From: Candidatus Poribacteria bacterium
GTDB taxonomy: Bacteria > Poribacteria > WGA-4E > WGA-3G
Assembly: GCA_026710795.1 (NCBI GenBank)
Contig: JAPOQK010000007.1
Span: 14,546-78,545 of the forward strand
Direction: 5' to 3'
DNA length: 64,000 bases
The notes under the pieces are model-generated. The model ran no database searches and was not told where the DNA came from. It was given only the letters and a program-made list of their open reading frames with translations. Positions 16,935 to 50,667 of this stretch are shown one piece after another. Position numbers and translations under genes: made by a program. Position 1 is the first letter of the stretch; every line of letters starts with the position of its first letter.

Positions 16935-16998
16935 TAATATGATTGCTATCTGAAGGTATGTGTATCTATAAGACTTAATATTATGTTTCTGTTACATC

Positions 16999-17071
16999 GG
17001 GGCAGTAGCTCAGTTGGGAGAGCGCATCCCTCGCACGGATGAGGTCACGGGTTCAAATCCCGTCTGCTCCA
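16999..17071 (+). tRNA. tRNA-Ala (anticodon CGC)
   Basis: Acceptor ggggcag / ctgctcc with the G3:U70 identity pair; anticodon stem catcc / ggatg with loop ctcgcac. Confidence 0.9.
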
Positions 17072-17089
17072 TTTTTATTATACTTTCCG

Positions 17090-17180
17090 GAGAGATGCAG
17101 GAGTTGGTTGAACTGGCATGACTGGAAATCATGTGTGCTGTTTTGCAGTACCGTGGGTTCGAATCCCACTCTCTCCGCCA
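17090..17180 (+). tRNA. tRNA-Ser (anticodon GGA)
   Basis: Acceptor ggagaga / tctctcc, anticodon stem catga / tcatg with loop ctggaaa, long variable arm, CCA encoded. Confidence 0.9.
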
Positions 17181-17264
17181 TATTTTGGAGCAATGCTGGC
17201 TATTGGATACTAACAGTGTGTTCTAAGGTCAGCATGTTCGCATCCGATAAGAATATAACGCCTT

Positions 17265-17534
17265 GGCTATGCTAGGTGGGGAGGTAGCGGTGCCCTGTAT
17301 CTGCAATCCGCTATAGCAGAACTGAATTCCCAGTATGAGGTCTGTTTTTGTGGGGACTGTCCCAAGTACGAAGCGTTGATAGTCGGGTCTTGAGCAACGG
17401 GAACTTGTTGAACCCCGTCAGGTCTGGAAGGAAGCAGCGGCAGATAAGGTTTCTCGTGTGACGCAAGGTAGCCTGGTTTGAGCTAACGACTTGGGCAACG
17501 CCCGGAAAGGCTTGTCGAGTTTGGGTGCATAGCC
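17265..17534 (+). ncRNA. ffs: Signal recognition particle RNA, large (Alu-domain-containing) type
   Basis: The domain IV signature gtcaggtctggaaggaagcagcggcagat is present. Terminal helix is ggctatgc (17265-17272) with gcatagcc (17527-17534). Length is about 270 nt, and it sits immediately upstream of dnaX as in Bacillus-type synteny. Confidence 0.85.
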
Positions 17535-27280: not shown

Positions 27281-27351
27281 AGGAATTTCTGTATTTAGAA
27301 AGAATAGGTCTCAGTATGACCTAATTAAATAAACTGAATTAAGGCTAAATT

Positions 27352-34676: not shown

Positions 34677-37600
34677 ATGGTACGACATACAAAAATCCTG
34701 CTTTCCATGCTTCTGTTTCTTTTTTGTTTTCATTTGGTATGTTGTTTGAACCGGTCAGACGCGCAAACGGAACCACAAAAACAGAACCCTCCCCTAAATT
34801 TATCCATTTTTTCCGTTATTGATAAGACAGAGAGTTTTCAATTGAAGGCAAACGAATCGGAATGGGTGGCTAAATACACACCTATTTTCGCTAATAGCGA
34901 ACAGATAATGGACAATAGAGGACAGAAACTCGTCAGTGGTAAAGATTACCAGATTGATTACGCAACGGGGAAAATTATCTTTAATAAATCTGTTTTGCCA
35001 GAAAAAGACGTAAAATGGACAATAACTTATCGCGTAATCCCTTTCAATATCCTAAAGATATATAAGCGAGACCTATTCGGATCATCCGTTGATGATCAGA
35101 CAGATGCAATGTCAAAAAATGGTGTCCCTCCTGATGTAGAAAGACCTCAGACATCTGTTTCAAGAATTCCTGATTCAACTTCACCTTCACAGTTAGAATA
35201 TTCGGGTAGCCGTACGTTTGGTATTTCGGTTGGCAGTGGTCGCTCATTATCGCAAAACCAGGAATTCCGTATCAATGTCAGAGGAAACGTCTCAGAAAAC
35301 ATAGAAGTGTTGGCAATGCTCTCAGACCAAGATTTGCCTATTCAACCGGAGGGAATGACCGAGGATATTCAGGACATCAATCAGAAACTCATCCGTATCA
35401 TGCATCCGAACGTCACAGGCACTTTAGGTGACTTCAATGCGACCTTAGGTCCATCTGAATTTATCTTTTTTCCACGTGCATTAGAAGGTGTCAAGGTTGA
35501 TGGTGATTTTGAGTGGGGTAGATTCCATATCATTCCGAGTGCGCTCCCAAAGGGACAGTCCACCAGCAAGGTGATTCGTGGACAGGAGGGACGTAGTGAA
35601 TATCGGCTTGATGTGAATAATCAGTTTGTTATTGTCAAGGCAGGTAGTGAGCTCGTTTGGTTGAACGGTGAGAAGATGCGGCGCGGTGAAAACAACGATT
35701 ATATTATCCGTGAATACGGTGATCCAATTATTGAGTTTAACAGCAAGCATCTGATAACAAGCAACGATGTAATCCGCGTTGATTTTGAATATATTCCGGA
35801 AGACCGATCCTATCAACAGAATCTTTATGGGATAAACTCGGTTTTGAAGTTACCTGGGGACTGGTTGTCACTCGGTGCTTCCTACGCTGTAGAATCGGAT
35901 TTAGATGACCCCGAACAAGCTTTAGTCCTGCTTGATGACGAGGACCTGGATGCTCTCCGATTAAATATGCTGGATCCAGATGGAGATGGAAGAATTCTTG
36001 TTCCTCCGCAAAAACACACGGTGTGGGGTCTGGAAAGTCGTCTGAATCTTACTGAACAGACGTGGGTTGATGGGGAACTTGCTTTTAGCGCGATTGATAA
36101 GAATACCTATTCTACCGTAGACAGAAAAGAGGTTAGTCAAGCTTGGAAACTTATCGGTAACACAGGATTGGACATTCCAACATGGAATAACAAGCTGCGT
36201 CCTAAACTGATAGGAAATTTTGATGTGCGTGCGATGGACGCGAATTTTCTACCTGTTGGTGCTTCACGGGGTAATCGAAATCGTGGTAGGTATGACACAC
36301 AGTATGCGACAGAAGGATTTGAGGATGCGCTTCTGTTTGATACGACCTCTTTTTCACAAGCATCCGATGAACAAACTGTAAATCTTGATTTCAAGTTATT
36401 GCCATATCAGTGGTTACAATTTGGTGTGGGTGGCGGTAGAACGATTGAGGTTGCGGTGGACGGACCAACAACACATCGCAATAATTACAATTGGGGGGCA
36501 AATTTCACACCGCGGATAAACAGAGGCAGAGGTGTCCAACTTACCTCTCCACAAGCACAAGATCTGTTTCGACCTTCCTCACAGTACCAAGTTGGAGATA
36601 TACGCAGAAAGAATCCTGCAGAAAGTGATCTTTCACAAAATACGATGGCAGGTAAAACGTCATTTCTACAAAGGTTGCCGAATCTCCGTTGGAATGACTA
36701 TCGGAGTACGTCTCTTATAGAACCAGACGAGGACACATCAGAAAGCAAAGAAAACTTTCGAAAGTCGCGCCAAGAGGGGAGTATTTCTTACTTGTTGTCT
36801 CCATTTGAATTTGTCGGTACTCTTAATCGTTTCTCTTCGATTGATAATTTCACGGCTTCTCGCAACCGCAGACGGGATCGGACTTCTGGACGTGTTAATT
36901 TGGTTGATTTCAAGTGGGTTTCCGTCAACACAAGCTACGAATTGGAACAGTCTTTTGCAAAAGAACCATTGTTGGCACTGGATGGTGAGGCATTAGGGAT
37001 TTCTGACTGGATGCGTGCTACTACAGCGCGGACGTGGAAAGTAGGTCTCTTTTCACAGCAGGGGACCTGGGTAAATATAAGGAGCAACCTTGCACGTCGA
37101 ATGGTAAAAGCGCATTCAGAACTCGGTGCCGATACAACAACGCAGTTAGCAGATACTACCCTTAATTTCTCTCCCCTCAACCGGGCAATTAACGTTGAAG
37201 TTACCTACGAATTGGATAAAAAACTGACAACACAACGTAGAGAGATTTATACTGATATTCACCCACTTACAGGACATAGAATCCAACCCGGTGAAGGATT
37301 TTACGTGAGGTTAGATGACTTGCGTTATGTGGAAGATGCCACGGAAGGCACGTATATAAAAATATACCAGAATGTTGGAGACAAACCGACAACAGCGGTT
37401 GATGCTTCCTTCCGTCTCCGACTTCAACCTCGTCAGTTTTTTGCCCGTCGTTCCCGAAGCCAACGAAATTTGGGTAGAACAGGATTTTCCAATCGATTAT
37501 CCGGTACCACAACTCCTCCTACTGAAAGTCAAAAACCTGAAAATGAAAGTAGAAAGCCATTTACATGGTTTTTAAATGCAATCAGTTCCGAATCGCGCTT

Positions 37601-38384
37601 GTGGCTGACAGAGGAACAGGAAGCGGAAGATACCATTTCTCTATATCTACTCCAAAGTATTCAAGGTTCAGATACGTTATTTGGACGAGTGAAGCACATT
37701 CATCGGGTTGCATTCTCTCCATCACCGCTGTTCAGTTTTGAAGTCAATCTGGAGACGGGACGGTCGCTCAATCGTCGGATTAATACGCAGGAACGACATC
37801 GAAATCATAGGGCGTGGGAGACATCTTTTTCAGTAAATCCCACCCAACGTTTTTCTTTCGGTGCCAACTGGGAGCAACGTAGAGAAACTGAGAAATATAG
37901 TCAATTGAATATCTTTGATGATGTAGATGGGGTTTCCAACCCCGATTTGCATCCACCTACGCCGATTTCTGACCTTCGCCAATTTGAGCAGGTAACAGAA
38001 TTGAAACTGCGGTATGAAATCAGTCGCGCGCTACGATGGGACGGTACAAGTGGATATAAACGCACCACCGACATAGAACATCTTGATGATGAAGACGATG
38101 CAAAGACCCGTACCTTCTCCTTTAAAAATCGTATCACATATGGTATATTTGACAAAGGAGGAATGGAAGTTTACCATACCCTCAGATATGGTAAAAGCGA
38201 TGGTGGTATCCCTTATGCACAGTACTATTTTTATGAAGGGATTAGTCATGAGATTTTTGCCGAAGCAGATTATAAGTTACGCAAATTTACCGATCTCATA
38301 TTTCGACTGAATTACCGTTTGCTTTCAACAAAGCAGCGCAAACCTGAACACCGTTTAGAAATGACTGTTAGCGCGGAGTTATAA
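34677..38384 (+). CDS. Very large secreted protein of unknown function
   Basis: 1235-aa uninterrupted ORF with a signal peptide (LLFLFCFHLVCC...SDAQ). No motif recognised. Confidence 0.6.
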   Translation: MVRHTKILLSMLLFLFCFHLVCCLNRSDAQTEPQKQNPPLNLSIFSVIDKTESFQLKANESEWVAKYTPIFANSEQIMDNRGQKLVSGKDYQIDYATGKIIFNKSVLPEKDVKWTITYRVIPFNILKIYKRDLFGSSVDDQTDAMSKNGVPPDVERPQTSVSRIPDSTSPSQLEYSGSRTFGISVGSGRSLSQNQEFRINVRGNVSENIEVLAMLSDQDLPIQPEGMTEDIQDINQKLIRIMHPNVTGTLGDFNATLGPSEFIFFPRALEGVKVDGDFEWGRFHIIPSALPKGQSTSKVIRGQEGRSEYRLDVNNQFVIVKAGSELVWLNGEKMRRGENNDYIIREYGDPIIEFNSKHLITSNDVIRVDFEYIPEDRSYQQNLYGINSVLKLPGDWLSLGASYAVESDLDDPEQALVLLDDEDLDALRLNMLDPDGDGRILVPPQKHTVWGLESRLNLTEQTWVDGELAFSAIDKNTYSTVDRKEVSQAWKLIGNTGLDIPTWNNKLRPKLIGNFDVRAMDANFLPVGASRGNRNRGRYDTQYATEGFEDALLFDTTSFSQASDEQTVNLDFKLLPYQWLQFGVGGGRTIEVAVDGPTTHRNNYNWGANFTPRINRGRGVQLTSPQAQDLFRPSSQYQVGDIRRKNPAESDLSQNTMAGKTSFLQRLPNLRWNDYRSTSLIEPDEDTSESKENFRKSRQEGSISYLLSPFEFVGTLNRFSSIDNFTASRNRRRDRTSGRVNLVDFKWVSVNTSYELEQSFAKEPLLALDGEALGISDWMRATTARTWKVGLFSQQGTWVNIRSNLARRMVKAHSELGADTTTQLADTTLNFSPLNRAINVEVTYELDKKLTTQRREIYTDIHPLTGHRIQPGEGFYVRLDDLRYVEDATEGTYIKIYQNVGDKPTTAVDASFRLRLQPRQFFARRSRSQRNLGRTGFSNRLSGTTTPPTESQKPENESRKPFTWFLNAISSESRLWLTEEQEAEDTISLYLLQSIQGSDTLFGRVKHIHRVAFSPSPLFSFEVNLETGRSLNRRINTQERHRNHRAWETSFSVNPTQRFSFGANWEQRRETEKYSQLNIFDDVDGVSNPDLHPPTPISDLRQFEQVTELKLRYEISRALRWDGTSGYKRTTDIEHLDDEDDAKTRTFSFKNRITYGIFDKGGMEVYHTLRYGKSDGGIPYAQYYFYEGISHEIFAEADYKLRKFTDLIFRLNYRLLSTKQRKPEHRLEMTVSAEL

Positions 38385-38397: not shown

Positions 38398-41300
38398 TTA
38401 GTTATCAAGATTGTAATGAAAAACCTTATTGTTTTTTGTACCAACGAATAATGTGTTTCTATCAACAGCAAGAGAAGTTACACTATCAGGTATGTCTGAC
38501 ACAAACTGTTCCCAAGTGCCACTTTCTATGCGATGGATTCCAGTATCTTTGGTAACACCATAAAGGGTAGTGCCATCAACAGCTAAATGCTCCATGATGA
38601 GATTATTTCCATTTGCATCAGTAATAGTCCGCCAACTTCTTCCGTCATCGGTTGTAATGATACCTCTGTCTGTTGATACAAAAACAGTGGTTTCAGCAAC
38701 GATGATATTGTTGAAAGTTTTTACTTGAAACGGCAGACCTTGTGTTAAATCAGTCCAACTGTTTCCTCTATCATACGATACGACAAGATGTCCGTCCCGT
38801 TTTCCGACGTATACGGTGTTCCCTGAGACTGCAAGTTTTAGGTTTTTCCTTGCGATGTCCTTAGTCAACTCAACAGTTTCTTCGAGTCCTGTATCGTGCC
38901 ATTTTATATCTCTCTGTTTCCATCTAAAGAGTTTGAAGTTATACTCCATATAGAATGTCTCACCACTTACCGCAAACGGTCCACTAAATCCCAAATCGAA
39001 AAGGTGGCTTGTCGTTGAACGAAAGAAGTTTTTGTTCTCATGCTGAACTTCCAATTGTTCCAACTGTTTGAAGAACTGCGCTGCACCAAAAGTGTTTTCT
39101 TCCACACTTTTTTTATACTCAATAGGCACAGGTTCTTGTCTTGGATACAAATAGTGCATTTTCAAGATACTACTATCAGGAATAGGTGCATCTTGAACCT
39201 GCACGAGTTTATTACTATCTGTAGATATGTTGTATAGGTTAATTTTATAACCACCAGATTCTACGCCTTTTGCATAGATTACATTTTCAGATTTTACTAT
39301 CTGAGAGATGCTCGGTTGTCCTTTTTCATGACGTTCAGTTTCTGGTATTTCCATCTGAATAATTTTCCATGATCTCCCTTTGTCTGTTGTTTTCGCAATC
39401 TCTCCTCTCCCATATCCCAATGCACCATTAAGTCTGGCGTAGATAACCGTATCCGTGTTTTGTCTTTTATCATTTCCATTGAAAGTAATAATGGTTTCTA
39501 TTGGACTTGATTCCTTCGCTTGAGGGATTTTTACTAAGTCCCAAGATTGACCTTTATCAATTGAACGATGGAGCCCGTCCTCACTATTGATATAAAGATC
39601 CTTTTCATTTAATGCCACAGCACGACACTGAGAAATTTCAGAAGTAGAAGTTCCAAGTTCCTGTGGTGACATCCATGTTTCACCTCTATCCGTAGAGCGA
39701 AGCGTAACATCTGCAATGACCAGAAGGGTTTCCTCAATAGCAATCAAAGCGATGTTGGGTGCAAAATCATCTCTGTTCCAAGCGTTTGTCGGTGTAATAT
39801 CTTTCCATGATTCTCCGATGTCAGTTGATCGGAATATCCACCAACCAGGTTCTTGTCCTGCGAAAACGTGATGAGCTCTCTCCAAATTAAATTCAGCTGC
39901 AAAATATAGATACTTATTAGTAGCGGTAACTGAAAAAATTCTGTCAATATTTTCTTCAGGTAATGCTATCTGTTCCCAGTTGTTGTCATTTAACTTAAAG
40001 AGACCTTTATCCGCTCCTGCAATCAACGTGTTTTGGTTTTTTACAAAAAAATGGATATTTCCCATTGATTCGGTATTCATTTTTTCCCATGTTTTACCTT
40101 TATCCTCAGATCGAAAAACCCCTGTTACAAAAGCAATATGAAATGCATCATCCATTAATATTAATCCTCTCGGTCCATATTCTTCCTGCCATGAATGGAC
40201 TAAATCCCAAGTCTTGCCATCATCTTTTGACGCAAATAACTGGTTAGATGATAGGATATAGAGCGTATTATTCCACTTTGTAATGGGTGGATTCGGTACC
40301 CACCGAGTATCAAGTGAAGATAGGTCAATGAGATGTTGCCACTCTTTTTTATCGGCAGGTAATTTGTGTAGACCAAAATCAAAATCAAGAGCGTAGAGTT
40401 CTCCCTCGGTTGTAACATGTATACTCTCCACTGGACTCCCTTTTATGGGTTCTGATTGAATCCACTGTTGTTTGGGAATAGAAAGGTCTTCTCCTTCGAC
40501 CTCTGCAGCCGCTAATAAGATTTCATCCACTTGCTGACCATTGTTATCGGACTTACCAAATACATTTTCATTTCCAAACTGATTTCGCACATCCGATTTT
40601 GGCTCTATATTCAAGACAATAGGGGTATCTACAAGTTCAACGGTTGTTTCAGCCTGTGCATCTAAACTATATGATTTCTGGAAATGCAACAAGTGTTGAC
40701 TGCCTAATCCAAGTAGCAATAGAATAAAAACGGCACTTGTAGCAGCGATAACCCACGGTACTAAAGGTTTGCCTCCTGTAGGTGTATTCGGTTTCAGTCG
40801 TGCGATTTCACGCATGATGTCGTCAGTAAGGTTCGGTGTAATTTGAAAGTGTTCAAGAGCTTCTCTAATCATCGTTTCCTCCTTCTTTAATCGTTGTTGT
40901 GCTCTACGGAGACGACTCCGAATTGTATTTGCCGATACACCTAAAAACGCACCGATCTCTGCGCTGGACATTTCACTAAAATAATGTAACGTGATGACCG
41001 TGCGTTCGCTCTCTGGTAGTTTTTCGAGCAATTTTTTAACGGCATCGCGCTGCGCTTCTGCTGCTGTTTGTTCTTTTTCTGTGATTACATATTGTGAATA
41101 TGTTGATTTCGTGAAAGGTGAGGTGCTTATGTCTTCCAGTGGTAGCGTCCAAACGCGTTTTTTACGCAACCATGTGCTACAATTGTTTGCTGCAATCACA
41201 TAAAGCCAGCTTGCGAAACTTTGCGGTTTCTTTAGTTTTGCTAATCCTCGGTATACTTGTAGGAATGTATCCTGTGTAATTTCCTCGGCAATGTGGAAGT

Positions 41301-41421
41301 CTCCGATTTTACGCCACACAAGCGCATGAACCGGTTTTTGATACTTTTCTACGAGTTCAGTGAAAGCAGTATCATCTCCGTTGAGAGTGCGGTTAATGAG
41401 TTCAATATCAGCGGTTTTCAT
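38398..41421 (-). CDS. ECF sigma-70 factor fused via one TM helix to a BNR/Asp-box beta-propeller domain (paralog 1)
   Basis: 1007 aa. Sigma region 2 is HIAEEITQDTFLQVY and region 4 is LPESERTVITLHYFSEMSSAEIGAFLGVSANTIRSRLRRAQ. TM segment is PLVPWVIAATSAVFILLLLGLG. About eight SxDxGxxW Asp-boxes follow. Confidence 0.85.
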   Translation of the reverse strand: MKTADIELINRTLNGDDTAFTELVEKYQKPVHALVWRKIGDFHIAEEITQDTFLQVYRGLAKLKKPQSFASWLYVIAANNCSTWLRKKRVWTLPLEDISTSPFTKSTYSQYVITEKEQTAAEAQRDAVKKLLEKLPESERTVITLHYFSEMSSAEIGAFLGVSANTIRSRLRRAQQRLKKEETMIREALEHFQITPNLTDDIMREIARLKPNTPTGGKPLVPWVIAATSAVFILLLLGLGSQHLLHFQKSYSLDAQAETTVELVDTPIVLNIEPKSDVRNQFGNENVFGKSDNNGQQVDEILLAAAEVEGEDLSIPKQQWIQSEPIKGSPVESIHVTTEGELYALDFDFGLHKLPADKKEWQHLIDLSSLDTRWVPNPPITKWNNTLYILSSNQLFASKDDGKTWDLVHSWQEEYGPRGLILMDDAFHIAFVTGVFRSEDKGKTWEKMNTESMGNIHFFVKNQNTLIAGADKGLFKLNDNNWEQIALPEENIDRIFSVTATNKYLYFAAEFNLERAHHVFAGQEPGWWIFRSTDIGESWKDITPTNAWNRDDFAPNIALIAIEETLLVIADVTLRSTDRGETWMSPQELGTSTSEISQCRAVALNEKDLYINSEDGLHRSIDKGQSWDLVKIPQAKESSPIETIITFNGNDKRQNTDTVIYARLNGALGYGRGEIAKTTDKGRSWKIIQMEIPETERHEKGQPSISQIVKSENVIYAKGVESGGYKINLYNISTDSNKLVQVQDAPIPDSSILKMHYLYPRQEPVPIEYKKSVEENTFGAAQFFKQLEQLEVQHENKNFFRSTTSHLFDLGFSGPFAVSGETFYMEYNFKLFRWKQRDIKWHDTGLEETVELTKDIARKNLKLAVSGNTVYVGKRDGHLVVSYDRGNSWTDLTQGLPFQVKTFNNIIVAETTVFVSTDRGIITTDDGRSWRTITDANGNNLIMEHLAVDGTTLYGVTKDTGIHRIESGTWEQFVSDIPDSVTSLAVDRNTLFVGTKNNKVFHYNLDN

Positions 41422-41603
41422 GAATTGCCTCCGATCAATGACCTATAGTGACGCATGTTAGGAGGAAAACTGGTGCATAATTCTGAAAAAAGAAATAGTT
41501 ATCAGGGATATATAGTTTTAGTTTAGGAATTATCAGTTATTGTATATTACTAAGAGTTTACGTCATAGATCGGATAGGACGAAGTAAAATCCAAAATGAT
41601 TGT

Positions 41604-41827
41604 CTGAATCACAGAAGGCACAGAGGACACTGAATACACAGAAGGGACTTTGGTATATTCAGGTTGTTCCACGGGATTCGCGTTTCTATCTGAATCACAA
41701 AGGCACAGCGCACACAGAAACCCACTAATTAAGAGGTGCAATGAATTGTGATTAAAGGCTCTGTTAACATATCTGATTCTCGGATTAATTGTATAATTAA
41801 CTGTGAAATACACCGAGGACACGGAAC
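41604..41827. repeat. Three degenerate copies of a CACAGA(A)GGCACAGAGGACAC-type motif
   Basis: Copies are ctgaatcacagaaggcacagaggacactgaa (41604), ctgaatcacaaaggcacagcgcacacagaa (41689) and aaatacaccgaggacacggaac (41805). They lie in the presumed leader of ECF paralog 1. Confidence 0.6.
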
Positions 41828-41911
41828 TTTTACTACGAATACTGTCAATAGGATATAGTGTTTTGTATACATAATTGTCTCATCTGTTTATAAAAACTCA
41901 ATGTGATACTA

Positions 41912-41940
41912 ATTATAACACAATAAATAACATGTGTCAA
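41912..41940 (-). promoter_or_regulatory. Consensus promoter TTGACA-N17-TATAAT reading toward ECF paralog 1
   Basis: The plus strand has attata at 41912-41917 and tgtcaa at 41935-41940 with a 17-nt spacer, about 490 nt upstream of the start codon at 41421. Confidence 0.55.
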
Positions 41941-42049
41941 GTTAAATTTTACTTTAGTAATGTAGAATTATTTCTAAACTTTACCATAAACGAAAAAGCA
42001 GGGATAGAGATAGGCAGGGAAGAATTAATTGCTGGTATGACGAAAGCAT

Positions 42050-42100
42050 ATAAATATCAAACATTTTCAGGATTAGTGGGATGTATTAACCCTGAAATGT
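42050..42100 (-). terminator. Possible terminator after the WD40 fragment
   Basis: Arms acattttcagg (42061-42071) and cctgaaatgt (42091-42100) with one bulge, followed on the minus strand by a T-rich run. Confidence 0.35.
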
Positions 42101-42122
42101 TGTTCAGAAATAATAATTCGGC

Positions 42123-42722
42123 TTATTTTGGTTGAGTTACTATAGGTTTAATTTCCCATAATAGCAACGTTCCATCTCTGCTTCCACTCGCGAGGGTTCT
42201 ACCGTCCGGACTGAATGACACGCTTGTAACCCAACTGGTATGCACCTCTGAAATTTGTTGAACTATATCTATTTGTGTATCCCATAGGTGGACGGTACTA
42301 TCTTTACTCCCACTTGCGATTGTTTTTCCATCGGGATTAAATGCAACGCTCATAATCCAATCTGTATGTTCTACAGTGTTGAGGAGTTCTCCTGTCTGTG
42401 TATCCCACAGATTGATGAGACCGTCATGACTGCCACTTACGATTGTATTACCATCTGGATTGAATGCCACACTAGAGACAACATTTGTGTGTCTTGAGAA
42501 AGTTCTAAGGAGTTCTCCTGTCAGCACATCCCACAGACGGACAGTACTATCCTTACTGCCACTTGCGATTGTATTACCATCTGGACTGAACGCAACGCTC
42601 ATAACCCAGTCCGTATGTCCTGAGAAAGTATTGAGAAGTTCACCAGTTTGTACATCATACAGATGGATAGTCTTATCCCAACTGGTACTTGCCAGCATAG
42701 TACCGTCTGGACTATATGCCAC
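42123..42722 (-). CDS. WD40-repeat fragment; 3' part of the frameshifted ECF-WD40 gene (blades 10-14)
   Basis: 199-aa ORF of five WD40 units. It has no plausible RBS, and its reading frame continues upstream into the 42776-46036 gene if 1 nt is added at 42824-42827. Confidence 0.8.
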   Translation of the reverse strand: MAYSPDGTMLASTSWDKTIHLYDVQTGELLNTFSGHTDWVMSVAFSPDGNTIASGSKDSTVRLWDVLTGELLRTFSRHTNVVSSVAFNPDGNTIVSGSHDGLINLWDTQTGELLNTVEHTDWIMSVAFNPDGKTIASGSKDSTVHLWDTQIDIVQQISEVHTSWVTSVSFSPDGRTLASGSRDGTLLLWEIKPIVTQPK

Positions 42723-42775
42723 GCCCGTGACAATATTCTTATGATCACCAAACGTTTTCTGTAACGTCCCTGCCT

Positions 42776-45700
42776 TTATGTCCCACAGACGAATTGCATG
42801 AGATTCGTCTCCGCTTGCGAGCGTTTTCCATCCGGACTAAATGCCACTCCAGTGATTGAAGCCATATCTTGGGTATTGAGAATATGACGAAGTTTTCCTG
42901 TCTGTGCATCCCATAAACGGATGGTGTTATCTTCTATCGCATTTACCAGTGTTTTTCCATCCGGACTAAATGCCACATACGTGATATCGACCACATGTCC
43001 TGTGAGCGTTTTTTGATGTTTTCCTGTCTGAACATCCCAAAAACGGATAGTAGAATCGAAACTTCCACTTACGAGTGTTTTGCTATCTGGACTGAACGCT
43101 ACGTCCAATGCCCAGTGCGTATGCCCTATGAGGATTCGGTGTCGTTCACCTGTTTGTACATTCCAAAGATGGATGAGTCCGTTATTCATAGCACTTGCGA
43201 GCATTTTTCCATCTTGACTAAAGGCAAATTCATTAACATAGTCCATTTGTTCTAATGGTAAGGTGTGAAGGAGTGTCGTCGTCTTCACATCCCATAAGCG
43301 AATGGGACCTTCAAAAACCCAACTTGCCAATGTTTTTCCATCCGCACTGAACGCCATTTTATAAATATCCTGCGGATGGTCAAGGTTGCGGGTTTTTCGG
43401 ATTTCACCTGACTGAGTATCCCAGAGACGGATGGTGTTATCCTTACTCGCGCTTGCGATCGTTTTTCCATCTGGACTAAATGTCACGCTCATAACCTTGT
43501 CTGTATGTCCTATAAGCGTTTTTTGGGGTGTGTCCGTCTGGATATTCCAGAGACGGATGGTGTTATCCTTACTCCCGCTTACCAATGTTTTTCCATCCGC
43601 ACTGAACACTAAACCCGTGGTGCTATTCATGCCTTGTGTTATTGTCCGAAGATGTGTGCCAGTGCGCGCATCCCACAGACGGATAGAACTCTTACTCTCA
43701 CTTGCAAGTGTTCTTCCGTCTTGACTGAACGTCACGTTCAAAACCCTATTTGTATGTCCTGTTAGCAGGTTAAGTGCTTTTCCAGTGTGTGCGTCATAGA
43801 TCCATATCCCAATTGAACTTGCTACAGCCAGACGCGTGCCATCTGAGGAATACGCGATGTCATTTGCCCTGCCTTTACCGATGCGAGTTTTTGCACCTTT
43901 GGGTAGGTGCTTTTGCAGCAAATCTTGAGAAACGTGATCAGAGACTTGTTCTACAGTCTGATCGTTTTTACTCGGTATAAAGGTGCTGCCAAGTTGTATC
44001 TGGAAATTCGGTTTGGTTTCAAGTTCACCTACCGTATGCAAGCGGTTGACACCAAAATCATCTATAGATGTATCAGGGGATATATCTAAACGCAGCAACT
44101 TACTCACATCAGTATTTAGCTGACACTGTTTCGTGAGAAGAACGTTTTTGAATAGGACATTTCCTCCATCCTGTTTTTTCAAAGATACTTTTGGAACAAT
44201 AGATCTCTCAATCCTCTTAGGGAACCAGACATCTGGTAGGTATTCGTGATACTCAATTTTTCGAGTTCTGATATAGGTTACACCTGCTTTGAAGGGATTC
44301 CATTCTCTGGTATCCTTTTCAACATATTCTTCTTCCGATTTAACAAGGCGGAAACCTTTGTCATGTGAAATCCAGAGTTTCAGGTGACGTGGTGGAATTT
44401 TGCGATCTCCAATGTTCCAAGCAGCTTTTGTTAAACGAATAACAGTTGTTTTTTCACCGCCTTCCAATACATCTATTCCCAGGATTTCAGTTTCACATTT
44501 TTCAAGCAAGTGCCAAAGGGGTTCCGATAGATAAGTATTGTCTGATCCGTCGCGTGGAAAGGTCAACCACCATCTCGGATCCGCGTCATGCATGCTAATT
44601 GCCCAATATGATCGAACAGCATATCCAACATTGTGTTTATATACCTCCGCCACTGTTTCTCCCACGAACAAGACAAAGTAGGTTTTATCTTTTTCTATGA
44701 TCCTGAAACTATTAGGTAGCTCACCATTGACGATGCGGACGTCGTCAGCAAGTTCTATGCCTACCTGCTTTAATGCATGTTTTATTCTCTCGTGAATTGC
44801 CATCTCTTTGTTCGGTGCAATCTCAACCTTGAAGAGAAGATTATGTGGTCCTGGTGAAGTTACCTCCCAATGCTGTTTTCCATCCCAAAACTCAATAGGA
44901 CGAAAACCTTCCGAATCCACTCGGACTTTCTCGCCATCAAATGTCAATTTATATTCATCTATCTTAATCTTCGGTTCTATATTGCGTTCGATGCTCAAAT
45001 TACCGAATGGAGGTGGTTTTCCACTAATCTCATAATTTCTATGGCGTTCAATGATAAAATCACCAGTTATGGAGGTTACAACATTATCGTATTGCTTCAT
45101 CTTTGCGATGATTGTATCTAAGTCAAGCGATGCGGTGTCTTCGGTTTGTTGACCTGCGCCATTGTTTTTGTCTGAAGCATTGGGACTTCCGATTTGTGAT
45201 CGTACATCCGGTTTTGCATTAATATTCTGTGCAATCGGTGTATCTACAAGTTCAACGGTTGTCTCAGCTTGTGCATCTAAACTATATGATTTCTGGAAAT
45301 GCACTAATTGTTGACTGCCTAATCCAAGCAGCAATCCAATCAAAATTGCACTTGATGCAGTAACTGCCCACGGCACCAAAGGTTTGCCTCCTGTAGGTGC
45401 AGTTGGTTTGAGTCGTTTAACTTCCCTCATGATGTTCTCAGTAAGTTGTGGTGTGATTTGGTAATTCTGTAATGCTTCTCTTATCATGGGTTCCTCCTTC
45501 TTTAAAAGTTGGCGCGCACGGTATAAACGACTCTTAATTGCACTTACCGATACACCTAAAAATCTGCTGATCTCCTCATAAGTCATTCCTCCGAGGTAAT
45601 AGAGCGTGATGACAGTGCGGTCACTCTCTTGTAACTTCGCAAGCAACTTTTTGACGATTTCGCGCTTTGCTTCTGCCGTTGACCGTTCGTTTTTTGAACT

Positions 45701-46036
45701 AACATAGGTGGAATAGGTAGCTTTCTCCAATTCTGCGCTATTGAAGTTATCCAACGATTGTGTCCGTAATTGTTTCTTACTAAGCCACGTCTTGCAGTGG
45801 TTCGTTGCTATCACATAGAGCCAACTTGCAAAGGACTGTGATTCCTTCAATTTTGGCAGATTCTGATATGCCCTCAGGAATGTTTCTTGTGTGATATCCT
45901 CAGCGATGTGGAAATCTTGTGTTTTCCGCCATGCGAGTGCGTGCACAGACTTCTGATATTTTCGGACGAGTTCGGAAAACGCAGTATCATCGCCATCAAG
46001 GACACGTTGAATGAGTTCAACATCAACATTTTTCAT
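42776..46036 (-). CDS. ECF sigma-70 factor fused via one TM helix to an unknown middle domain and WD40 propellers (paralog 2, 5' part)
   Basis: 1086 aa. The sigma-to-TM region is about 80-90% identical to paralogs 1 and 3. Nine WD40 units follow. The last 17 residues (RSQAETNLMQFVCGT) are out-of-frame read-through after the frameshift. Confidence 0.85.
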   Translation of the reverse strand: MKNVDVELIQRVLDGDDTAFSELVRKYQKSVHALAWRKTQDFHIAEDITQETFLRAYQNLPKLKESQSFASWLYVIATNHCKTWLSKKQLRTQSLDNFNSAELEKATYSTYVSSKNERSTAEAKREIVKKLLAKLQESDRTVITLYYLGGMTYEEISRFLGVSVSAIKSRLYRARQLLKKEEPMIREALQNYQITPQLTENIMREVKRLKPTAPTGGKPLVPWAVTASSAILIGLLLGLGSQQLVHFQKSYSLDAQAETTVELVDTPIAQNINAKPDVRSQIGSPNASDKNNGAGQQTEDTASLDLDTIIAKMKQYDNVVTSITGDFIIERHRNYEISGKPPPFGNLSIERNIEPKIKIDEYKLTFDGEKVRVDSEGFRPIEFWDGKQHWEVTSPGPHNLLFKVEIAPNKEMAIHERIKHALKQVGIELADDVRIVNGELPNSFRIIEKDKTYFVLFVGETVAEVYKHNVGYAVRSYWAISMHDADPRWWLTFPRDGSDNTYLSEPLWHLLEKCETEILGIDVLEGGEKTTVIRLTKAAWNIGDRKIPPRHLKLWISHDKGFRLVKSEEEYVEKDTREWNPFKAGVTYIRTRKIEYHEYLPDVWFPKRIERSIVPKVSLKKQDGGNVLFKNVLLTKQCQLNTDVSKLLRLDISPDTSIDDFGVNRLHTVGELETKPNFQIQLGSTFIPSKNDQTVEQVSDHVSQDLLQKHLPKGAKTRIGKGRANDIAYSSDGTRLAVASSIGIWIYDAHTGKALNLLTGHTNRVLNVTFSQDGRTLASESKSSIRLWDARTGTHLRTITQGMNSTTGLVFSADGKTLVSGSKDNTIRLWNIQTDTPQKTLIGHTDKVMSVTFSPDGKTIASASKDNTIRLWDTQSGEIRKTRNLDHPQDIYKMAFSADGKTLASWVFEGPIRLWDVKTTTLLHTLPLEQMDYVNEFAFSQDGKMLASAMNNGLIHLWNVQTGERHRILIGHTHWALDVAFSPDSKTLVSGSFDSTIRFWDVQTGKHQKTLTGHVVDITYVAFSPDGKTLVNAIEDNTIRLWDAQTGKLRHILNTQDMASITGVAFSPDGKRSQAETNLMQFVCGT

Positions 46037-46117
46037 CGGATACCTCTGCCAAAGGAAGTTATTTATTTCAGATTGACATATAGTGACTCGACTTGATGTA
46101 AAAAAGTTGCATGTTTT

Positions 46118-46180
46118 TCAAAAGAAAAAGGGGAAGAGAGGATAATGTTCAAGTATTATATCATTATCCTCTCTCTTTTT
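46118..46180 (-). terminator. Bidirectional-looking hairpin terminator between ECF paralogs 3 and 2
   Basis: A 13-bp stem, agagaggataatg (46135-46147) with cattatcctctct (46162-46174), has T-runs on both strands. Confidence 0.55.
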
Positions 46181-46279
46181 ACATACATATAAGTTTTAAG
46201 TTGTCAGAGATTACAACATTTAGTGTGGAGTATAAAAGGAGGGAGTGGGATGCATACGGTGTCACCAACATAAGGTATT

Positions 46280-49240
46280 TTATTCTTCAAGATTATAGTG
46301 AAGCATGCCGCGGTTTTCTGTTCCTACGTATAGGGTGTTTCCGTCAACAGCAAGTGAGGTAACGTGTTCAGGTATATCTGAAATGATCTGTTTGAAAGTA
46401 GCATTTTCCAAACGATATATGCCAGTATCTTTTGTAATACCGTAAAGCGTTGTGTCATCATCAGCCAAGTGTTCCATGATAAGGTTGGTTCCATTTGCAT
46501 CGGTGACGGTACTCCAATTTTTCCCATCGTCTGATGTAATGATACCTGCGTCAGTTGCTACGCATACGGTGGATCCCGCAACGACTATATCTTTGTAAGT
46601 TTTTACTTGAAACGGCAGACCCGGTGTGAGATCAACCCAGTTATTTCCCTTATTGAAGGATACGACAAGGCGTCCATCCCGTTTTCCGACGTAGACGGTG
46701 TCTCCTGATATGGCAAGTTTGAGATCTTTCCATGCTATTTCCCAAGACAACTCAGCAGTTTCTTCTTGTCCGATGGCTTGCCATTCTTTATCACCCGGTT
46801 CCCGTCGAAAGAGCTTAAAGTTGCACTCCATGTAGAATGTATCACCACTGACTGAAAATGGACCTTGTAATCCTCGCTCCATAAACGAATTTACACCCGG
46901 TTGGGGTTCTGCTACCAATTTCTTAAAGAACTGTGCTGCACCAGCATATTTTTCTTGTAACTTTTCTGCAAGTGGATTATTTCGCAATTCAAATTGGAGA
47001 TATGATGCACCTGATTTAAAAAATGGTCTGTCATGTATTGGTAGAAGCGTGATACTATTGGCTGATACACGATATAGCCGTAAGTCTTGATGTTGGTAGA
47101 AATCTCCACTTTTTGCGTAGATAACACCTCCAGATTTGACAATATGGGTGATTTTTGGGTACTCTATTCTATCAGACTCAGTCATAGGTACTTCAATTTG
47201 AACATTTGTCCAGGACTTTCCACCATCGGTAGTTTTTACTATCTCGTTTCCGCTTCTTCCATAAAGTGTATGAAGTGTGTTTGTCTTATTATCGGTTTTT
47301 TCCAATGCTATTATTTGATGGATTCCACCTACATTTTGAGTAATATTTACTTTATTCCAGGACGTACCACCATCAGTGGTACGTTGGAGACCGTCCATGC
47401 TCTGAATATAAAAGATATCCTTGTTACCTGCAGCAGCGGTTTTCCAAGTATTCATTTGAGGTGTGGTTTTCGCTAATTGTGGAGGCATCCATGTATTTCC
47501 ACTATCGGTAGAACGGACCATACCTCGTTCCATAACTAAGAGTGTATCACCTGCAGCAATAAGTTTGATATATGGACAGAGACCATTCACGGGCCAAGCG
47601 TTTGTTGGCGTTATATCTTCCCATGAATTTCCGAGGTCATTCGAGCGTAATATCCACCAACCACGCGCGAGTCCATTAGCGACTTTATTAGGATGTACCA
47701 CGTCGAAACTAACCATTACCGCAACATATAATATTTCTTGTGTTGCAGCAATTGATCGAACCTCTCCAATTATTGGGTCTGGGAACTTTATAGGTTCCCA
47801 ACTGTCAGCATTAAGACGGTGAAATCCGGTGTCCGTTACTGCAAACAAGGTGTTTTGTATATTGGTAACAGAAAAAACATGTGCCTGATCATATATTGAT
47901 TCCCATGTCTTACCTGCGTCCTCAGAACGAAAAATACCCTGTTCAAATGCAGCATAAAACACTTGATCTGTTAAGAACAAGCCACTTGGATCATATCTGT
48001 TTTGCCAAGAGTAGACCAAATCCCACGTCTTACCATCATCTTTTATAGCAAAAAGTTTGCCGGAAGTTAAAATGTAAAGGGTATTATTCCACTTCACGAG
48101 CGGTGAACTCGGATGATACGCAACCCCTAATGAATCAACATTAAAAATGTTTTTCCAAGAATTTCCATCTGCTTCCAATTTGTATATTTGTCTATTAGCA
48201 GCAAAAGTGTATATTTCTTCTGACGGTGTTGCATGTAAACTATATATATGACTGCCTTTGATAGGTTCAGCCTGAATCCACTGCTGTTTTGGCACAGAAA
48301 TGTTCTCTCCTTCGGCTTGTGCAGAAGCCAATAATATCTCATCGGGTTTCTGACCATTATTATCACTCTTACCAAGTGGATTTGTATTGCCAAGTTGATT
48401 TTGGACATCTACTTTTACTTCAAGATTTAGCACGTTAGGTGCATCAACGAGTTCAACCGTTGTCTCAGCTTGTGCATCTAAAGAATAAGGTTTCTGGAAA
48501 TGCACTAATTGTTGACTTCCTAATCCGAGTAGTAATACAATCAACAGAGCACTTGAAGTGGCGATAGCCCACGGCACCAAAGGTTTGCCTCCTGTAGGTG
48601 CAGCCGGTTTTAGTCGTGCGATTTCACGCATAATGTTTTCAGTGAGATGTGGTGTGATTTGGTAATACTCTAATGCTTCTCTTATCATGGGTTCCTCCTT
48701 TTGTAGGTGCTTGCGTGCGCGGTAGAGTCGGTTCTTAATTGCACTTACTGATACACCTAAAAACCTACTTATCTCTTCATACGTCATTCCCCCGAGGTAG
48801 TATAGCGTGACGACAGTGCGGTCACTCTCCTGTAACTTCGCAAGCAGTTTTTTGACCACTTCGCGTTTCGCCTCTACTGATGTCCGTTCGTTTTCCTCAA
48901 CTACATAACTGGAATAGGTTGCTTTTTCCAATTCTGCACTATCTGTAACTTCCAACGACTGTGTTAGCATACGCTTTTTCTTACGAAGCCACGTATTGCA
49001 TCGATTCACCACTATCACATAGAGCCAACTGGCAAAAGACTGTGGTTCCTTCAGTGTTGTTAGTTCCTGATATGCCTTTAGAAATGTTTCCTGTGTGATA
49101 TCCTCAGCGATGTGGAAATCTTGAATCTTACGCCATGCAAGTGCGTGCACAGACTTCCGGTATTTTCGGACGAGTTCTGAGAATGCAGTATCATCGCCAT
49201 CACGGACACGTTGGATGAGTTCTACATCGGCATTTTTCAT
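46280..49240 (-). CDS. ECF sigma-70 factor fused via one TM helix to a BNR/Asp-box beta-propeller domain (paralog 3)
   Basis: The start was set at MKNADVELIQRV (49240) by alignment with paralogs 1 and 2; it shares the RBS context cagaggtatccgATG with paralog 2. About eight Asp-boxes. The track ORF extends to 49270. Confidence 0.85.
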   Translation of the reverse strand: MKNADVELIQRVRDGDDTAFSELVRKYRKSVHALAWRKIQDFHIAEDITQETFLKAYQELTTLKEPQSFASWLYVIVVNRCNTWLRKKKRMLTQSLEVTDSAELEKATYSSYVVEENERTSVEAKREVVKKLLAKLQESDRTVVTLYYLGGMTYEEISRFLGVSVSAIKNRLYRARKHLQKEEPMIREALEYYQITPHLTENIMREIARLKPAAPTGGKPLVPWAIATSSALLIVLLLGLGSQQLVHFQKPYSLDAQAETTVELVDAPNVLNLEVKVDVQNQLGNTNPLGKSDNNGQKPDEILLASAQAEGENISVPKQQWIQAEPIKGSHIYSLHATPSEEIYTFAANRQIYKLEADGNSWKNIFNVDSLGVAYHPSSPLVKWNNTLYILTSGKLFAIKDDGKTWDLVYSWQNRYDPSGLFLTDQVFYAAFEQGIFRSEDAGKTWESIYDQAHVFSVTNIQNTLFAVTDTGFHRLNADSWEPIKFPDPIIGEVRSIAATQEILYVAVMVSFDVVHPNKVANGLARGWWILRSNDLGNSWEDITPTNAWPVNGLCPYIKLIAAGDTLLVMERGMVRSTDSGNTWMPPQLAKTTPQMNTWKTAAAGNKDIFYIQSMDGLQRTTDGGTSWNKVNITQNVGGIHQIIALEKTDNKTNTLHTLYGRSGNEIVKTTDGGKSWTNVQIEVPMTESDRIEYPKITHIVKSGGVIYAKSGDFYQHQDLRLYRVSANSITLLPIHDRPFFKSGASYLQFELRNNPLAEKLQEKYAGAAQFFKKLVAEPQPGVNSFMERGLQGPFSVSGDTFYMECNFKLFRREPGDKEWQAIGQEETAELSWEIAWKDLKLAISGDTVYVGKRDGRLVVSFNKGNNWVDLTPGLPFQVKTYKDIVVAGSTVCVATDAGIITSDDGKNWSTVTDANGTNLIMEHLADDDTTLYGITKDTGIYRLENATFKQIISDIPEHVTSLAVDGNTLYVGTENRGMLHYNLEE

Positions 49241-49416
49241 CGGATACCTCTGACATGGGGAGTTCATCATTTCATATCTATATGTAATGACGCATTTGGG
49301 AGAGAAAAAGTCTCATAATTCTGAATGTTTTGGAGTAAACTTAGATGGAGAAGGTTGGTTCATGAAATACAAGGATATGTTCAGTTTAAAATCGGGTATT
49401 GTTTTGTAGAAGGGCA

Positions 49417-50667
49417 TCATTTTTGCGATCCTTCGGGTGCGGATATCACATAAGCAAAGTTTTTACCGATTGCAATACTTATCGGATGACTTGCCTGAAG
49501 TGGTGTGGTAGATAACCAATTATCTCTTTGCCCTTCTATAGAAAGGCTGAAAATAGAGAAGAATCCTTTAGCGTTAACTATGTAAAGCATATTCTCCAGA
49601 ATTTGAAAATCCGTGACAGATCCCATCAATCGTTTGGTGTTAACCTTTATTTTTTTGTCTGATGAATCTTGGTCGATTTGCAGCATTTTTCCAGAATTGA
49701 CAGTATACCTATTCGTTGGTTTTCCGCGAGCGAGTGTCTTTTGTCCTGTCGCGTTGAGATGGTTGAGATAGCTGTAATCCGCTTTAAAGTAACCCAAACT
49801 TTGACTATGACTAAGATTATTCATTTTTTTTGCCGCAGAAATCAATAAATCACATGTTGGATCTTTCAAGCTTTCCATGACAAGAAAATTTGACGATGCG
49901 CGGACTTTCTCTCCTCTGCTGCTGTGGAGTTGTAATAAACCACGTTTAGATAAGAGCGTTTCCGAAAGAACATCAGGGATAGTGGGTGTAGTCGGGAGCT
50001 TAATCTGTTTTACTTTAGGAACTTCGACATCCGGACTAAGCAACCACCAACGGTTCATTAGTTTCTCGGATATGACTGGGAGAGCATATCCGGTATGTAG
50101 CGAATAAATGTGTAGGGAGTCATTTTCTCCTACAGCATACAAATGCTCGTCACGAATATCAATGTCTATGATTGCTTTTCGATCAGATAGGTAATTGGTA
50201 GATTGAAGTGTTGGCTGGGATGGTTTTGAAACATTAACGATATGAAACTTTTTAGGACTTGCTACAACGAGAAGATTTCCAGATGAAAGCACTTTTCCGA
50301 TTTTATCTTTAAAAGTAAGGGTTGTCAGATAAGATGGAAACTGTGGTATGGAAATATCAATGACGTGAAGATGCTTTTCGGTTGTGACATACGCGTGCTT
50401 TCCTGCGAAAACAACGGTATTGTTTGGATTGACGCGATACGGTAATCGGATAGAAGCAGCGAGTGTTGGGTATTCTAAATCCTCTATCTCTATTACAGTG
50501 AAGATACTACCATCTGTTTTGGCAGGAGTCGGTTTAGGTTTTTGAGGTGGCTCAAGTGCGTTTTTTGGGTTCTGTTCAATTGTGCTTAGACCACACCCAA
50601 TGTAAAAAAACGCAGGGAGTATCAACGTTAGAAATATAATAATCAGTTTTGTAAATTGTTTTGTCAT
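49417..50667 (-). CDS. Lipoprotein with LVIVD-like beta-propeller repeats
   Basis: 416 aa with lipobox FYIGC. Repeated pattern: AGKHAYVTTEKHLHVIDISIPQFP, GNLLVVASPKKFHIVNVSKPSQP and DEHLYAVGENDSLHIYSL. Confidence 0.55.
   Translation of the reverse strand: MTKQFTKLIIIFLTLILPAFFYIGCGLSTIEQNPKNALEPPQKPKPTPAKTDGSIFTVIEIEDLEYPTLAASIRLPYRVNPNNTVVFAGKHAYVTTEKHLHVIDISIPQFPSYLTTLTFKDKIGKVLSSGNLLVVASPKKFHIVNVSKPSQPTLQSTNYLSDRKAIIDIDIRDEHLYAVGENDSLHIYSLHTGYALPVISEKLMNRWWLLSPDVEVPKVKQIKLPTTPTIPDVLSETLLSKRGLLQLHSSRGEKVRASSNFLVMESLKDPTCDLLISAAKKMNNLSHSQSLGYFKADYSYLNHLNATGQKTLARGKPTNRYTVNSGKMLQIDQDSSDKKIKVNTKRLMGSVTDFQILENMLYIVNAKGFFSIFSLSIEGQRDNWLSTTPLQASHPISIAIGKNFAYVISAPEGSQK

Follow-up and report, generated by a model that had tools for sequence, protein, structure and literature searches.

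Extracytoplasmic function (ECF) sigma factors fused to further domains are an established category (PMC8999054, PMC7826278). In IutY of Pseudomonas putida (ECF243, FecI/FecR-type), one polypeptide holds a cytosolic ECF sigma factor, one membrane pass and a periplasmic domain, and activation proceeds by sequential proteolysis: Prc first shortens the periplasmic part to some 50 residues, and RseP subsequently frees the sigma factor (PMC5411451; PMC8999054). Actinobacterial members of ECF52, ECF53 and ECF48 (e.g. SCO4117) likewise combine an ECF sigma factor with a membrane-spanning extension and an extracytoplasmic carbohydrate-binding domain, and proteolytic activation has been proposed for them (PMC8999054). 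In Planctomycetes, ECFs occur in multiple copies whose cores are conserved and whose C-terminal extensions, WD40-like ones among them, are unrelated (PMC7671368), with 5.3 copies per genome in the case of ECF57 (bioRxiv 10.1101/2019.12.11.873521). Here we describe a tandem array of three genes for putatively membrane-tethered ECF sigma factors from Candidatus Poribacteria, a group of sponge-symbiont bacteria (GTDB lineage Poribacteria; WGA-4E; WGA-3G). The array lies in a stretch of 64,000 nt of contig JAPOQK010000007.1 (assembly GCA_026710795.1, positions 14,546-78,545, forward strand), hereafter termed the window, and all coordinates given below are window positions.

Judged from their sequences, the three proteins (paralogs 1, 2 and 3, abbreviated P1, P2 and P3; Table 1) belong to a Poribacteria-wide family of one-protein signalling units. 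Their open reading frames (ORFs), all on the minus strand, encode 1007 aa in P1, 1086 aa as encoded in P2 and 996 aa in P3 (46280-49270), whose start is most likely at 49240 (M11, leaving 986 aa), as chosen by gene callers. All three share a common order, namely an ECF sigma factor (regions 2 and 4), a helix of about 30 aa, one transmembrane (TM) segment, a juxtamembrane block and an ectodomain of 700-1000 aa; the sigma core, post-sigma-4 helix, TM segment and juxtamembrane block together (283 aa) are referred to as the N-module. No separate anti-sigma gene is found within the array. An earlier note on this DNA had proposed such an array, i.e. three same-strand genes, each with a complete ECF sigma factor, a single TM helix, a conserved juxtamembrane block and an extracytoplasmic sensor, and no anti-sigma gene of its own, and this picture is borne out by the ORFs, family scans, hydropathy, structure prediction and the periplasmic type of the ectodomains. 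The possibility that the genes are chimeric assembly products, which the same note had raised, can be dismissed, since at least 14 contigs of several samples contain the locus with every sigma-ectodomain junction (those shown stem from four samples in ENA, with k141-type contig names, and JGI).

The N-terminal domains are, by sequence criteria, ECF (group 4) sigma-70 factors. The NCBIfam model TIGR02937 (sigma70-ECF; cut-off 42.9 bits) matched all three proteins with 102-105 bits, and among the matches listed, the Pfam families Sigma70_r2 (cut-off 24 bits) and Sigma70_r4_2 (cut-off 25.7 bits) reached 51-54 and 54-62 bits, respectively, for P1 and P3; sigma regions 1 and 3 had no match in P1-P3 in either Pfam or NCBIfam. 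The nearest NCBIfam models are of the SigW/RpoE type, with the Rhodopirellula/Verrucomicrobium model TIGR02989 at 83-88 bits remaining below its cut-off of 124.55, and the closest solved relatives of the P2 core are RpoE, SigH and SigW-type ECFs. C81 in sigma-2 is the sole invariant cysteine and sigma-4 of P1-P3 contains none, in contrast to ECF57, where two conserved cysteines link sigma-2 and sigma-4 (PMC8999054).

Directly after residue 181, all three proteins continue with a shared helix (EEPMIREALE-QITP-LTENIMREI-RLKP) and a Pro/Gly turn (GGKPLVPW) that lead into one hydrophobic 19-mer per protein (aa 221-239). Its Kyte-Doolittle mean is 1.9-2.3 (the usual threshold for a TM call over a 19-mer being 1.6), it is preceded by 3-4 and followed by one Lys/Arg residue, and the subsequent juxtamembrane block HFQK(S/P)YSLDAQAETTVELVD is common to all three. 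Conservation and hydropathy were further assessed over 129 family copies, 128 of which carry a TM-grade segment at the same place (median hydropathy 2.21 over 19 residues), again with more Lys/Arg before than after. Conservation amounts to 0.87 in the post-sigma-4 helix, equal to that of the sigma domains, 0.79 in the juxtamembrane block and 0.64, the lowest value, in the TM segment, which is rich in small and helix-breaking residues (Ala, Ser, Gly, Pro). A topology with the N-terminus inside and the C-terminus outside is supported by these sequence features, because a TM-grade segment is present in nearly every copy and the partner ectodomains are typically periplasmic.

The region between sigma-4 and the membrane differs from that of the known fused ECFs. 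No anti-sigma Pfam family (FecR, zf-HC2 or other) was matched by P1-P3 or by the isolated linker-TM-juxtamembrane module at E up to 10, the module matched no Pfam family of any kind, and in a profile search of it against PDB, the Notch3 TM peptide was the only match and lacked significance. The linker (aa 182-220) contains no Cys or His motif, so that there is no zinc-binding HxxxCxxC anti-sigma domain, and a class I anti-sigma domain (about 80 aa and four helices, N-terminal to the TM segment) is not accommodated by the only about 40 aa that separate sigma-4 from the membrane. IutY, by contrast, contains an anti-sigma domain of the FecR type and requires a TonB-dependent receptor in the outer membrane, whereas ECF52, ECF53 and ECF48 carry a zinc-finger anti-sigma (ZAS) domain between sigma factor and membrane and moreover belong to another phylum and have other ectodomains. 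The only NCBIfam model matched by the module was NF052375 ("anti-sigma factor"), found in 13 of 27 members and aligned in register to positions 42-113 of the 217-position profile; the scores were weak, however, with 19-20 bits for the members shown (cut-off 100 bits) and a best E of 8.9e-5. Given that the match begins at profile position 42, the N-terminal part of the anti-sigma factor is absent, and the simplest reading of this sequence relationship is that the cassette may derive from an old sigma/anti-sigma gene fusion minus the N-terminal sigma-binding helices.

For the ectodomains of P1 and P3, the earlier count of about eight BNR/Asp-box repeats held, with strict motif numbers of 8 and 7, respectively. 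An AlphaFold2 (AF2) model of P1, built on 85 homologs, is confident for residues 320-1007 (pLDDT mostly 75-95 per 10-residue block) and of low confidence for the sigma, linker and TM part. Fold comparison of this ectodomain by Foldseek placed GH74 xyloglucanases first (PDB 2cn3, 5fkq, 1sqj; E 7.5e-21, probability 1.0, TM-score 0.41, rmsd about 11 Å), which are themselves tandem propellers with Asp-box repeats but share only 12-15% identity, and the context of the P1 domain is that of a sensor and not of a secreted enzyme. Next came the periplasmic sensors of the Bacteroides hybrid two-component systems (HTCS) BT4663 and BT4673 (PDB 4a2l, 3ott; E about 1e-18, identity 11-12%), with a TM-score of 0.31 that is low owing to a different orientation of the two propellers. 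These also unite a tandem propeller ectodomain, a single membrane pass and a cytoplasmic transcription-control module, although their output consists of a histidine kinase, a receiver and an AraC domain instead of a sigma factor. A weak match below cut-off to the NCBIfam F510_1955 glycosylhydrolase model was also obtained for the P1 ectodomain. Overall, the model of the BNR ectodomain tentatively points to a double propeller of the GH74 type, and this predicted fold suggests glycan sensing by the BNR type with host-matrix glycans as input, which is the weakest of our inferences. A BNR/GH74-like sensor on an ECF is unmentioned in the accessible literature, consistent with the view of the earlier note that this variant is undescribed, while the underlying pattern of conserved cores and swapped extensions has already been published for Planctomycetes (PMC7671368).

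For the P2 middle domain (aa 304-675), sequence searches of Pfam and PDB were without match and only 32 relatives were found; its model, of medium confidence, retrieved the half-barrels of LprG, LolA and RseB at E about 1e-4, and the domain is tentatively regarded as LolA/LprG/RseB-like. In two other family members (the L015 copy at 4001 and the L030 copy at 294), a P2-type middle domain occurs twice in tandem, with the second about 40% identical.

The assignment of these ectodomains to the periplasm also bears on an alternative in which the hydrophobic segment does not span a membrane and the propellers are cytoplasmic regulatory extensions, comparable to the soluble C-terminal ones of ECF41 and ECF42 or to the proposal made for the WD40-like extensions of ECF57. 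WD40 domains are mostly cytoplasmic in other organisms, the AF2 model did not render the segment as a helix, and in the L059 copy at 7208 a BNR propeller follows the sigma core directly, with neither hydrophobic segment nor juxtamembrane block; this copy may be a soluble variant or a degenerate one. Such an arrangement is nevertheless highly improbable for the family as a whole, as it would have to account for a median hydropathy of 2.21 versus the usual 1.6 in 128/129 copies, for redoxin/AhpC-TSA, trypsin-like and glycosidase-like partners, for the resemblance of the module to the TM region of an anti-sigma factor model and for fold matches to periplasmic HTCS sensors and secreted GH74 enzymes.

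In P2, the reading frame stops 20 codons past the motif SPDGK, and the WD40 array resumes in another ORF (42123-42722). Addition of one A to the A4 run at 42824-42827 yields an ORF of 1304 aa with exactly 14 WD40 repeats, and an intact P2 ortholog of the same 1304 aa exists in the Poribacteria metagenome-assembled genome (MAG) OY763324.1 (69% identity over aa 1-1071 and 74% over the tail). Consequently, from the earlier description of P2 as a domain of about 400 aa followed by 14 WD40 blades, the first part stands (about 370 aa), whereas the second fails for the protein as encoded (1086 aa) and holds after the one-base repair (1304 aa). At least 14 contigs have the frameshifted product of 1086 aa on record, and the shift is therefore unlikely to be an artefact of a single assembly. 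Programmed frameshifting was considered and rejected, as no canonical slippery heptamer is present and transcriptional slippage would need a run longer than A4; the frameshift is taken as a mutation.

The family is large. More than 120 full-length homologs (52-88% identity, 100% coverage) were found, and all source-named ones are from Candidatus Poribacteria; several lie on one chromosome-sized contig and are therefore paralogs. A one-genome-per-species scan gave 300 relatives, and 72 of the 75 loci kept are from named Poribacteria MAGs or single-amplified genomes (SAGs), the remaining three lying on contigs of one MAG labelled only "uncultured bacterium". The 133 copies in these loci are all co-stranded with their neighbours, usually with two or three in tandem per 8.8 kb. 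An exhaustive search of 1.84 billion representatives with a family-specific profile (post-sigma-4 helix, TM segment and juxtamembrane block; cut-off E 1e-3) recovered at least 253 clusters at 50% identity, with the match nearly always at residues 182-283 of proteins of 400-1377 aa. Sigma-2 and sigma-4 are present in all 52 family representatives tested and WD40 repeats in 29 of these. When the ectodomains were clustered, at least 12 types emerged besides the WD40 and BNR groups, among them transglutaminase-like, Ig-like, redoxin/AhpC-TSA, trypsin-like with TPR, inactive M16 and GHL15 (glycosidase-like) domains.

Within the array, the N-modules of P2 and P3 are 81% identical at the protein level and yet joined to unrelated ectodomains, while those of P1 and P3 are 67% identical and carry the same ectodomain type at 50% identity. 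As the trees of N-module and ectodomain disagree, a swapping of sensors between sigma modules is supported by sequence comparison. Recent gene conversion among the three copies, which had been put forward alongside domain swapping, was in turn rejected in view of a fourfold-site identity of 0.44-0.68 and the lack of near-identical tracts. The DNA identity of the sigma-TM-juxtamembrane region had likewise been overestimated, as the intervals for which 85-90% was claimed are 83-84% identical in P1-P3, with 82% between P2 and P3 and 70-71% between P1 and the others over the whole N-module.

This mode of diversification recalls the ECF57/ECF01-Gob factors of Planctomycetes, which also occur in many copies with conserved sigma-2/sigma-4, unrelated large C-terminal extensions and incongruent trees of core and extension (PMC7671368, PMC8999054). 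The duplicated unit is, however, larger in Poribacteria, comprising promoter, leader, sigma core, helix, TM segment and juxtamembrane block, and it is arranged in same-strand tandem arrays; the WD40-like C-terminal repeats of ECF57 find their counterpart in P2 and the 29 representatives mentioned above, whereas P1 and P3 carry BNR repeats instead. IutY, for comparison, is a single "unique" protein, while the Poribacteria proteins form a large paralogous family with large propeller ectodomains. Taken together, the absence of an anti-sigma domain, the cassette from promoter to juxtamembrane block, the tandem arrays, the GH74/HTCS-like sensor and the one conserved cysteine would set the Poribacteria family apart.

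A sceptical view would hold that such arrays are largely decaying or selfishly expanding duplicates and that the cassette is conserved owing to recent duplication. The P2 frameshift in several assemblies would agree with this, as would the many relatives that are short fragments or ectodomains lacking a sigma domain. We nonetheless consider it very unlikely: the paralogs are old by the fourfold-site identities given above, yet their cassette proteins are 66-81% identical, the full-length homologs are spread across many Poribacteria MAGs, an intact P2 ortholog exists, and the covariation of promoter and sigma-4 described in the following needs selection on function.

The upstream regions of P1, P2 and P3 align in one shared block, and the check for a common ECF-type autoregulatory promoter recommended in the earlier note gave stronger evidence than expected. 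Over the upstream regions of 128 copies, the consensus reads TTTgcAgAAtt-TGaGACTTTTT-N-GCgTCAcTA, followed by a conserved leader, with the -10 element ending 48-49 nt before the ATG; summarised as TGxxAC-N17-CGTC, with an AAC-type -35 and a CGT-type -10, it has the form of an autoregulated ECF promoter. A strict motif, [GT]G[ACT][AG]AC-N16-18-C[GA]TC, occurs in 83/128 of these regions as compared to 0.58 in shuffles and 0 on the opposite strand. A position weight matrix (PWM) of the promoter, scanned across the 64-kb window, found only the P2 and P3 promoters, and 99 of its 103 matches in 611 kb of related loci are situated directly upstream of family genes. In P1, a variant (TGCACC-N18-CGTCACTA) with a shorter leader is present, which recurs upstream of P1 orthologs. 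As for regulon members near the genes, the PWM scans of the window and the 611 kb yielded essentially family promoters only.

The -35 elements fall into classes (GAGAC, GAAAC, GTGAC, GCAAC and GCACC) that covary with three positions in the recognition helix of sigma-4 (residues 165, 169 and 171), which represent the top three mutual-information columns of the 283-aa module in a closely related subfamily. Among pairs that are at least 80% identical, these residues differ in 69-82% when the -35 classes differ vs. 10-12% when the class is the same. The window genes combine N169 with GAGAC (P3), S169 with GCAAC (P2) and N165/S169/R172 with GCACC (P1), and differing -35 classes were found in 28/37 tandem loci. 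The signal is concentrated in the helix that reads the DNA, as expected under paralog-specific autoregulation, and, at the sequence level, argues for a control of each gene by its own putative ECF-type promoter. The covariation of three sigma-4 residues with the -35 hexamer furthermore offers candidate orthogonal sigma/promoter pairs with a simple specificity code.

The leader of about 40 nt (uaUgUUGAUgUGAAAUgAUGAACaUUCCcUUUucAGAGGUaUCCGAUG; e.g. 46037-46078 and 49241-49282, minus strand) is conserved in sequence across paralogs and species; with regard to a structured RNA, RNAalifold found no consensus structure, single-sequence z-scores were positive and Rfam had nothing in the locus. A promoter of the form GAGACTTTTT-N11-GCGTCACTA was also observed in seven JGI metagenome contigs of about 60% GC (L080, L081, L084, L085, L088, L090 and L092), immediately upstream of genes for ECFs of about 211 aa. 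These are 23% identical to the Poribacteria core and unrelated, i.e. an independent ECF lineage appears to have a near-identical, presumptive autoregulatory promoter. A residue code linking -35 and sigma-4 across ECF groups was rejected, as these ECFs of about 211 aa carry Ser where the Poribacteria GAGAC class has Asn.

The reading that we favour, at a probability of about 60%, is that each protein is a one-polypeptide transmembrane signalling unit which is activated by release from its membrane tether. The architecture, the topology, the family and the promoter motif with its covariation have direct support, and silencing by the tether as well as the two-step release are inferred. The N-terminal 181 aa are predicted to be a cytoplasmic ECF sigma factor tethered to the inner membrane by the helix and the single TM segment, and in this state it would be kept from productive RNA polymerase-promoter complexes. 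The C-terminal ectodomain would serve as sensor (a BNR double propeller in P1 and P3, a LolA-like domain with two WD40 propellers in P2), and binding or loss of a ligand could license ectodomain trimming, after which a site-2 (RseP-type) protease would cut within the membrane and free the sigma domain. The freed sigma factor would presumably activate its own promoter, resulting in positive feedback, and a regulon elsewhere in the genome, and the tandem arrays, in which sensors are swapped and sigma/promoter pairs have diverged, would establish parallel, largely insulated input channels. By analogy to IutY, with its successive cleavage by Prc and RseP, and to the proposals for ECF52, regulated intramembrane proteolysis is the most likely route of release.

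Several observations weigh against this model. Neither a protease site nor a cleavage product was seen, the window encodes no protease for such a release, a site-2 protease included, and no anti-sigma domain is recognisable in the short stretch before the membrane. The low-confidence part of the P1 model, spanning sigma, linker and TM segment, is silent on an inhibitory contact, and the NF052375 match is far below its cut-off. Target promoters other than the family's own were found neither in the window nor within 4 kb of the 133 copies, and the covariation statistics can be inflated by shared descent of gene and promoter. In addition, given the frameshift in P2 and the many fragmentary relatives in databases, some copies may be decaying.

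Some of these points would equally suit the main rival reading, a sigma factor that is active in its tethered form, without proteolysis, as in the case of ToxR and CadC, with the ectodomain controlling oligomerisation or conformation and RNA polymerase being recruited to membrane-proximal DNA. The post-sigma-4 helix, conserved like the sigma domains, would then be a signal-transmitting element, in agreement with the short linker and the missing anti-sigma domain, and protease evidence was not seen. However, IutY, the only experimentally studied fused sigma factor of the same layout, needs cleavage by Prc and RseP (PMC5411451). A leash of about 40 residues also seems short for the docking of sigma-4 on the beta-flap of an enzyme of about 400 kDa, and the abundance of Ala, Ser, Gly and Pro in the TM segment resembles that of site-2 protease substrates. 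We therefore regard activity in the tethered state as unlikely and prefer activation by release.

The array belongs to a signalling family spread across its lineage, an uncultured and ecologically dominant phylum of sponge symbionts, and the members of this family are labelled in databases only as "sigma-70 family RNA polymerase sigma factor". Papers on Poribacteria have noted abundant WD40 "eukaryote-like" proteins without mention of sigma factors (PMC3909097), and part of this load would, on the present reading, be sensors of transcription switches and not host-mimicking effectors. Combining all parts, one may speculate that Poribacteria run a large tether-and-release sigma array in which the anchor alone is the inhibitor, that dozens of insulated, self-amplifying channels, each with a co-evolved pair of sigma-4 and -35, read host-matrix glycans and other extracellular cues via swapped ectodomains, and that many "eukaryote-like" WD40 proteins of sponge symbionts are bacterial sensor domains; as a whole, this picture is possible but rather doubtful. 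In any case, a fused sigma factor devoid of an anti-sigma domain represents a clean system for asking whether tethering alone silences a sigma factor.

Table 1. Features of the tandem array (window positions).
Feature	Coordinates	Strand	Evidence
Paralog 1, 1007 aa: ECF sigma, predicted TM helix, BNR/Asp-box double propeller (model)	38398..41421	-	ORF; Pfam Sigma70_r2, r4_2, Sortilin-Vps10/BNR; AF2 and Foldseek to GH74
P1 sigma-2/sigma-4 core, aa 1-181	40879..41421	-	Pfam, NCBIfam
P1 conserved post-sigma-4 helix, aa 182-211	40789..40878	-	conservation 0.87 over 129 copies; weak anti-sigma model match
P1 TM segment, aa 221-241	40699..40761	-	Kyte-Doolittle 19-mer mean 2.34
P1 juxtamembrane block, aa 242-266, HFQKSYSLDAQAETTVELVD	40624..40698	-	alignments; conservation 0.79
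P1 ectodomain, aa 320-1007, beta-propeller model, 8 Asp-boxes	38401..40464	-	pLDDT, Foldseek, motif count
P1 putative ECF-type promoter variant TGCACC-N18-CGTCACTA, short leader	41446..41477	-	sequence; alignment; variant recurs ahead of orthologous copies
Paralog 2 as encoded, 1086 aa: ECF sigma, predicted TM, domain of about 370 aa, WD40 repeats; frameshift-shortened	42776..46036	-	ORF, Pfam, ortholog
P2 A4 run, one base missing vs. intact frame	42824..42827	-	sequence; repair by one A; intact ortholog L009_4001
P2 out-of-frame continuation, last ~5 WD40 repeats	42123..42722	-	Pfam WD40; 74% identity to aa 1107-1304 of intact ortholog
P2 middle ectodomain, aa 304-675, tentative LolA/LprG/RseB-like half-barrel	44012..45127	-	model; no Pfam or PDB sequence match
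P2 TM segment, aa 221-241	45314..45376	-	Kyte-Doolittle
P2 putative ECF-type promoter TGCAAC-N17-AGTCACTA	46079..46119	-	PWM 42.2 bits; alignment
Paralog 3, 986 aa from M11: ECF sigma, predicted TM helix, BNR double propeller (model)	46280..49240	-	ORF, Pfam, gene callers
P3 TM segment	48515..48577	-	Kyte-Doolittle
P3 putative ECF-type promoter TGAGAC-N17-CGTCATTA	49283..49323	-	PWM 35.1 bits; alignment

The array is flanked by two further genes. An ORF of 1235 aa (34677-38384, plus strand) is convergent on P1, begins with a sequence resembling a signal peptide, matches no Pfam family at useful significance and stays beside the array in other assemblies of the locus. Directly upstream of the array and on the same strand (49417-50667, minus), a protein of 416 aa is encoded that has an LVIVD repeat and whose N-terminus is hydrophobic and lipoprotein-like, without a family promoter ahead of its gene. 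The 700-bp spacer between P2 and P1 contains a sigma-70 promoter that matches the consensus at 12/12 positions (TTGACA-17-TATAAT plus an upstream TG; 41912-41940, minus), which is followed by a 47-aa ORF with a CPRC motif (about 41729-41872, minus); a 47-residue product in the spacer is also found in JGI.

At a greater distance, the window encodes a gingipain-like C25 peptidase of 1752 aa with a propeptide and a C-terminal FlgD Ig-like domain (642-5900, plus) as well as a TPR protein of 1471 aa with the PIN domain of the TPR-GreAB-C-PIN system (PF20698; 58681-63096, plus). A histidine kinase and, after it, a fusion of response regulator and SpoIIE/PP2C phosphatase (24737-28608, plus) resemble a partner-switching module and are unrelated to the array. 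Finally, six tRNA genes interrupted by a deaminase ORF (16326-16814) and followed by a large bacterial signal recognition particle (SRP) RNA are located at 15914-17532 (plus).

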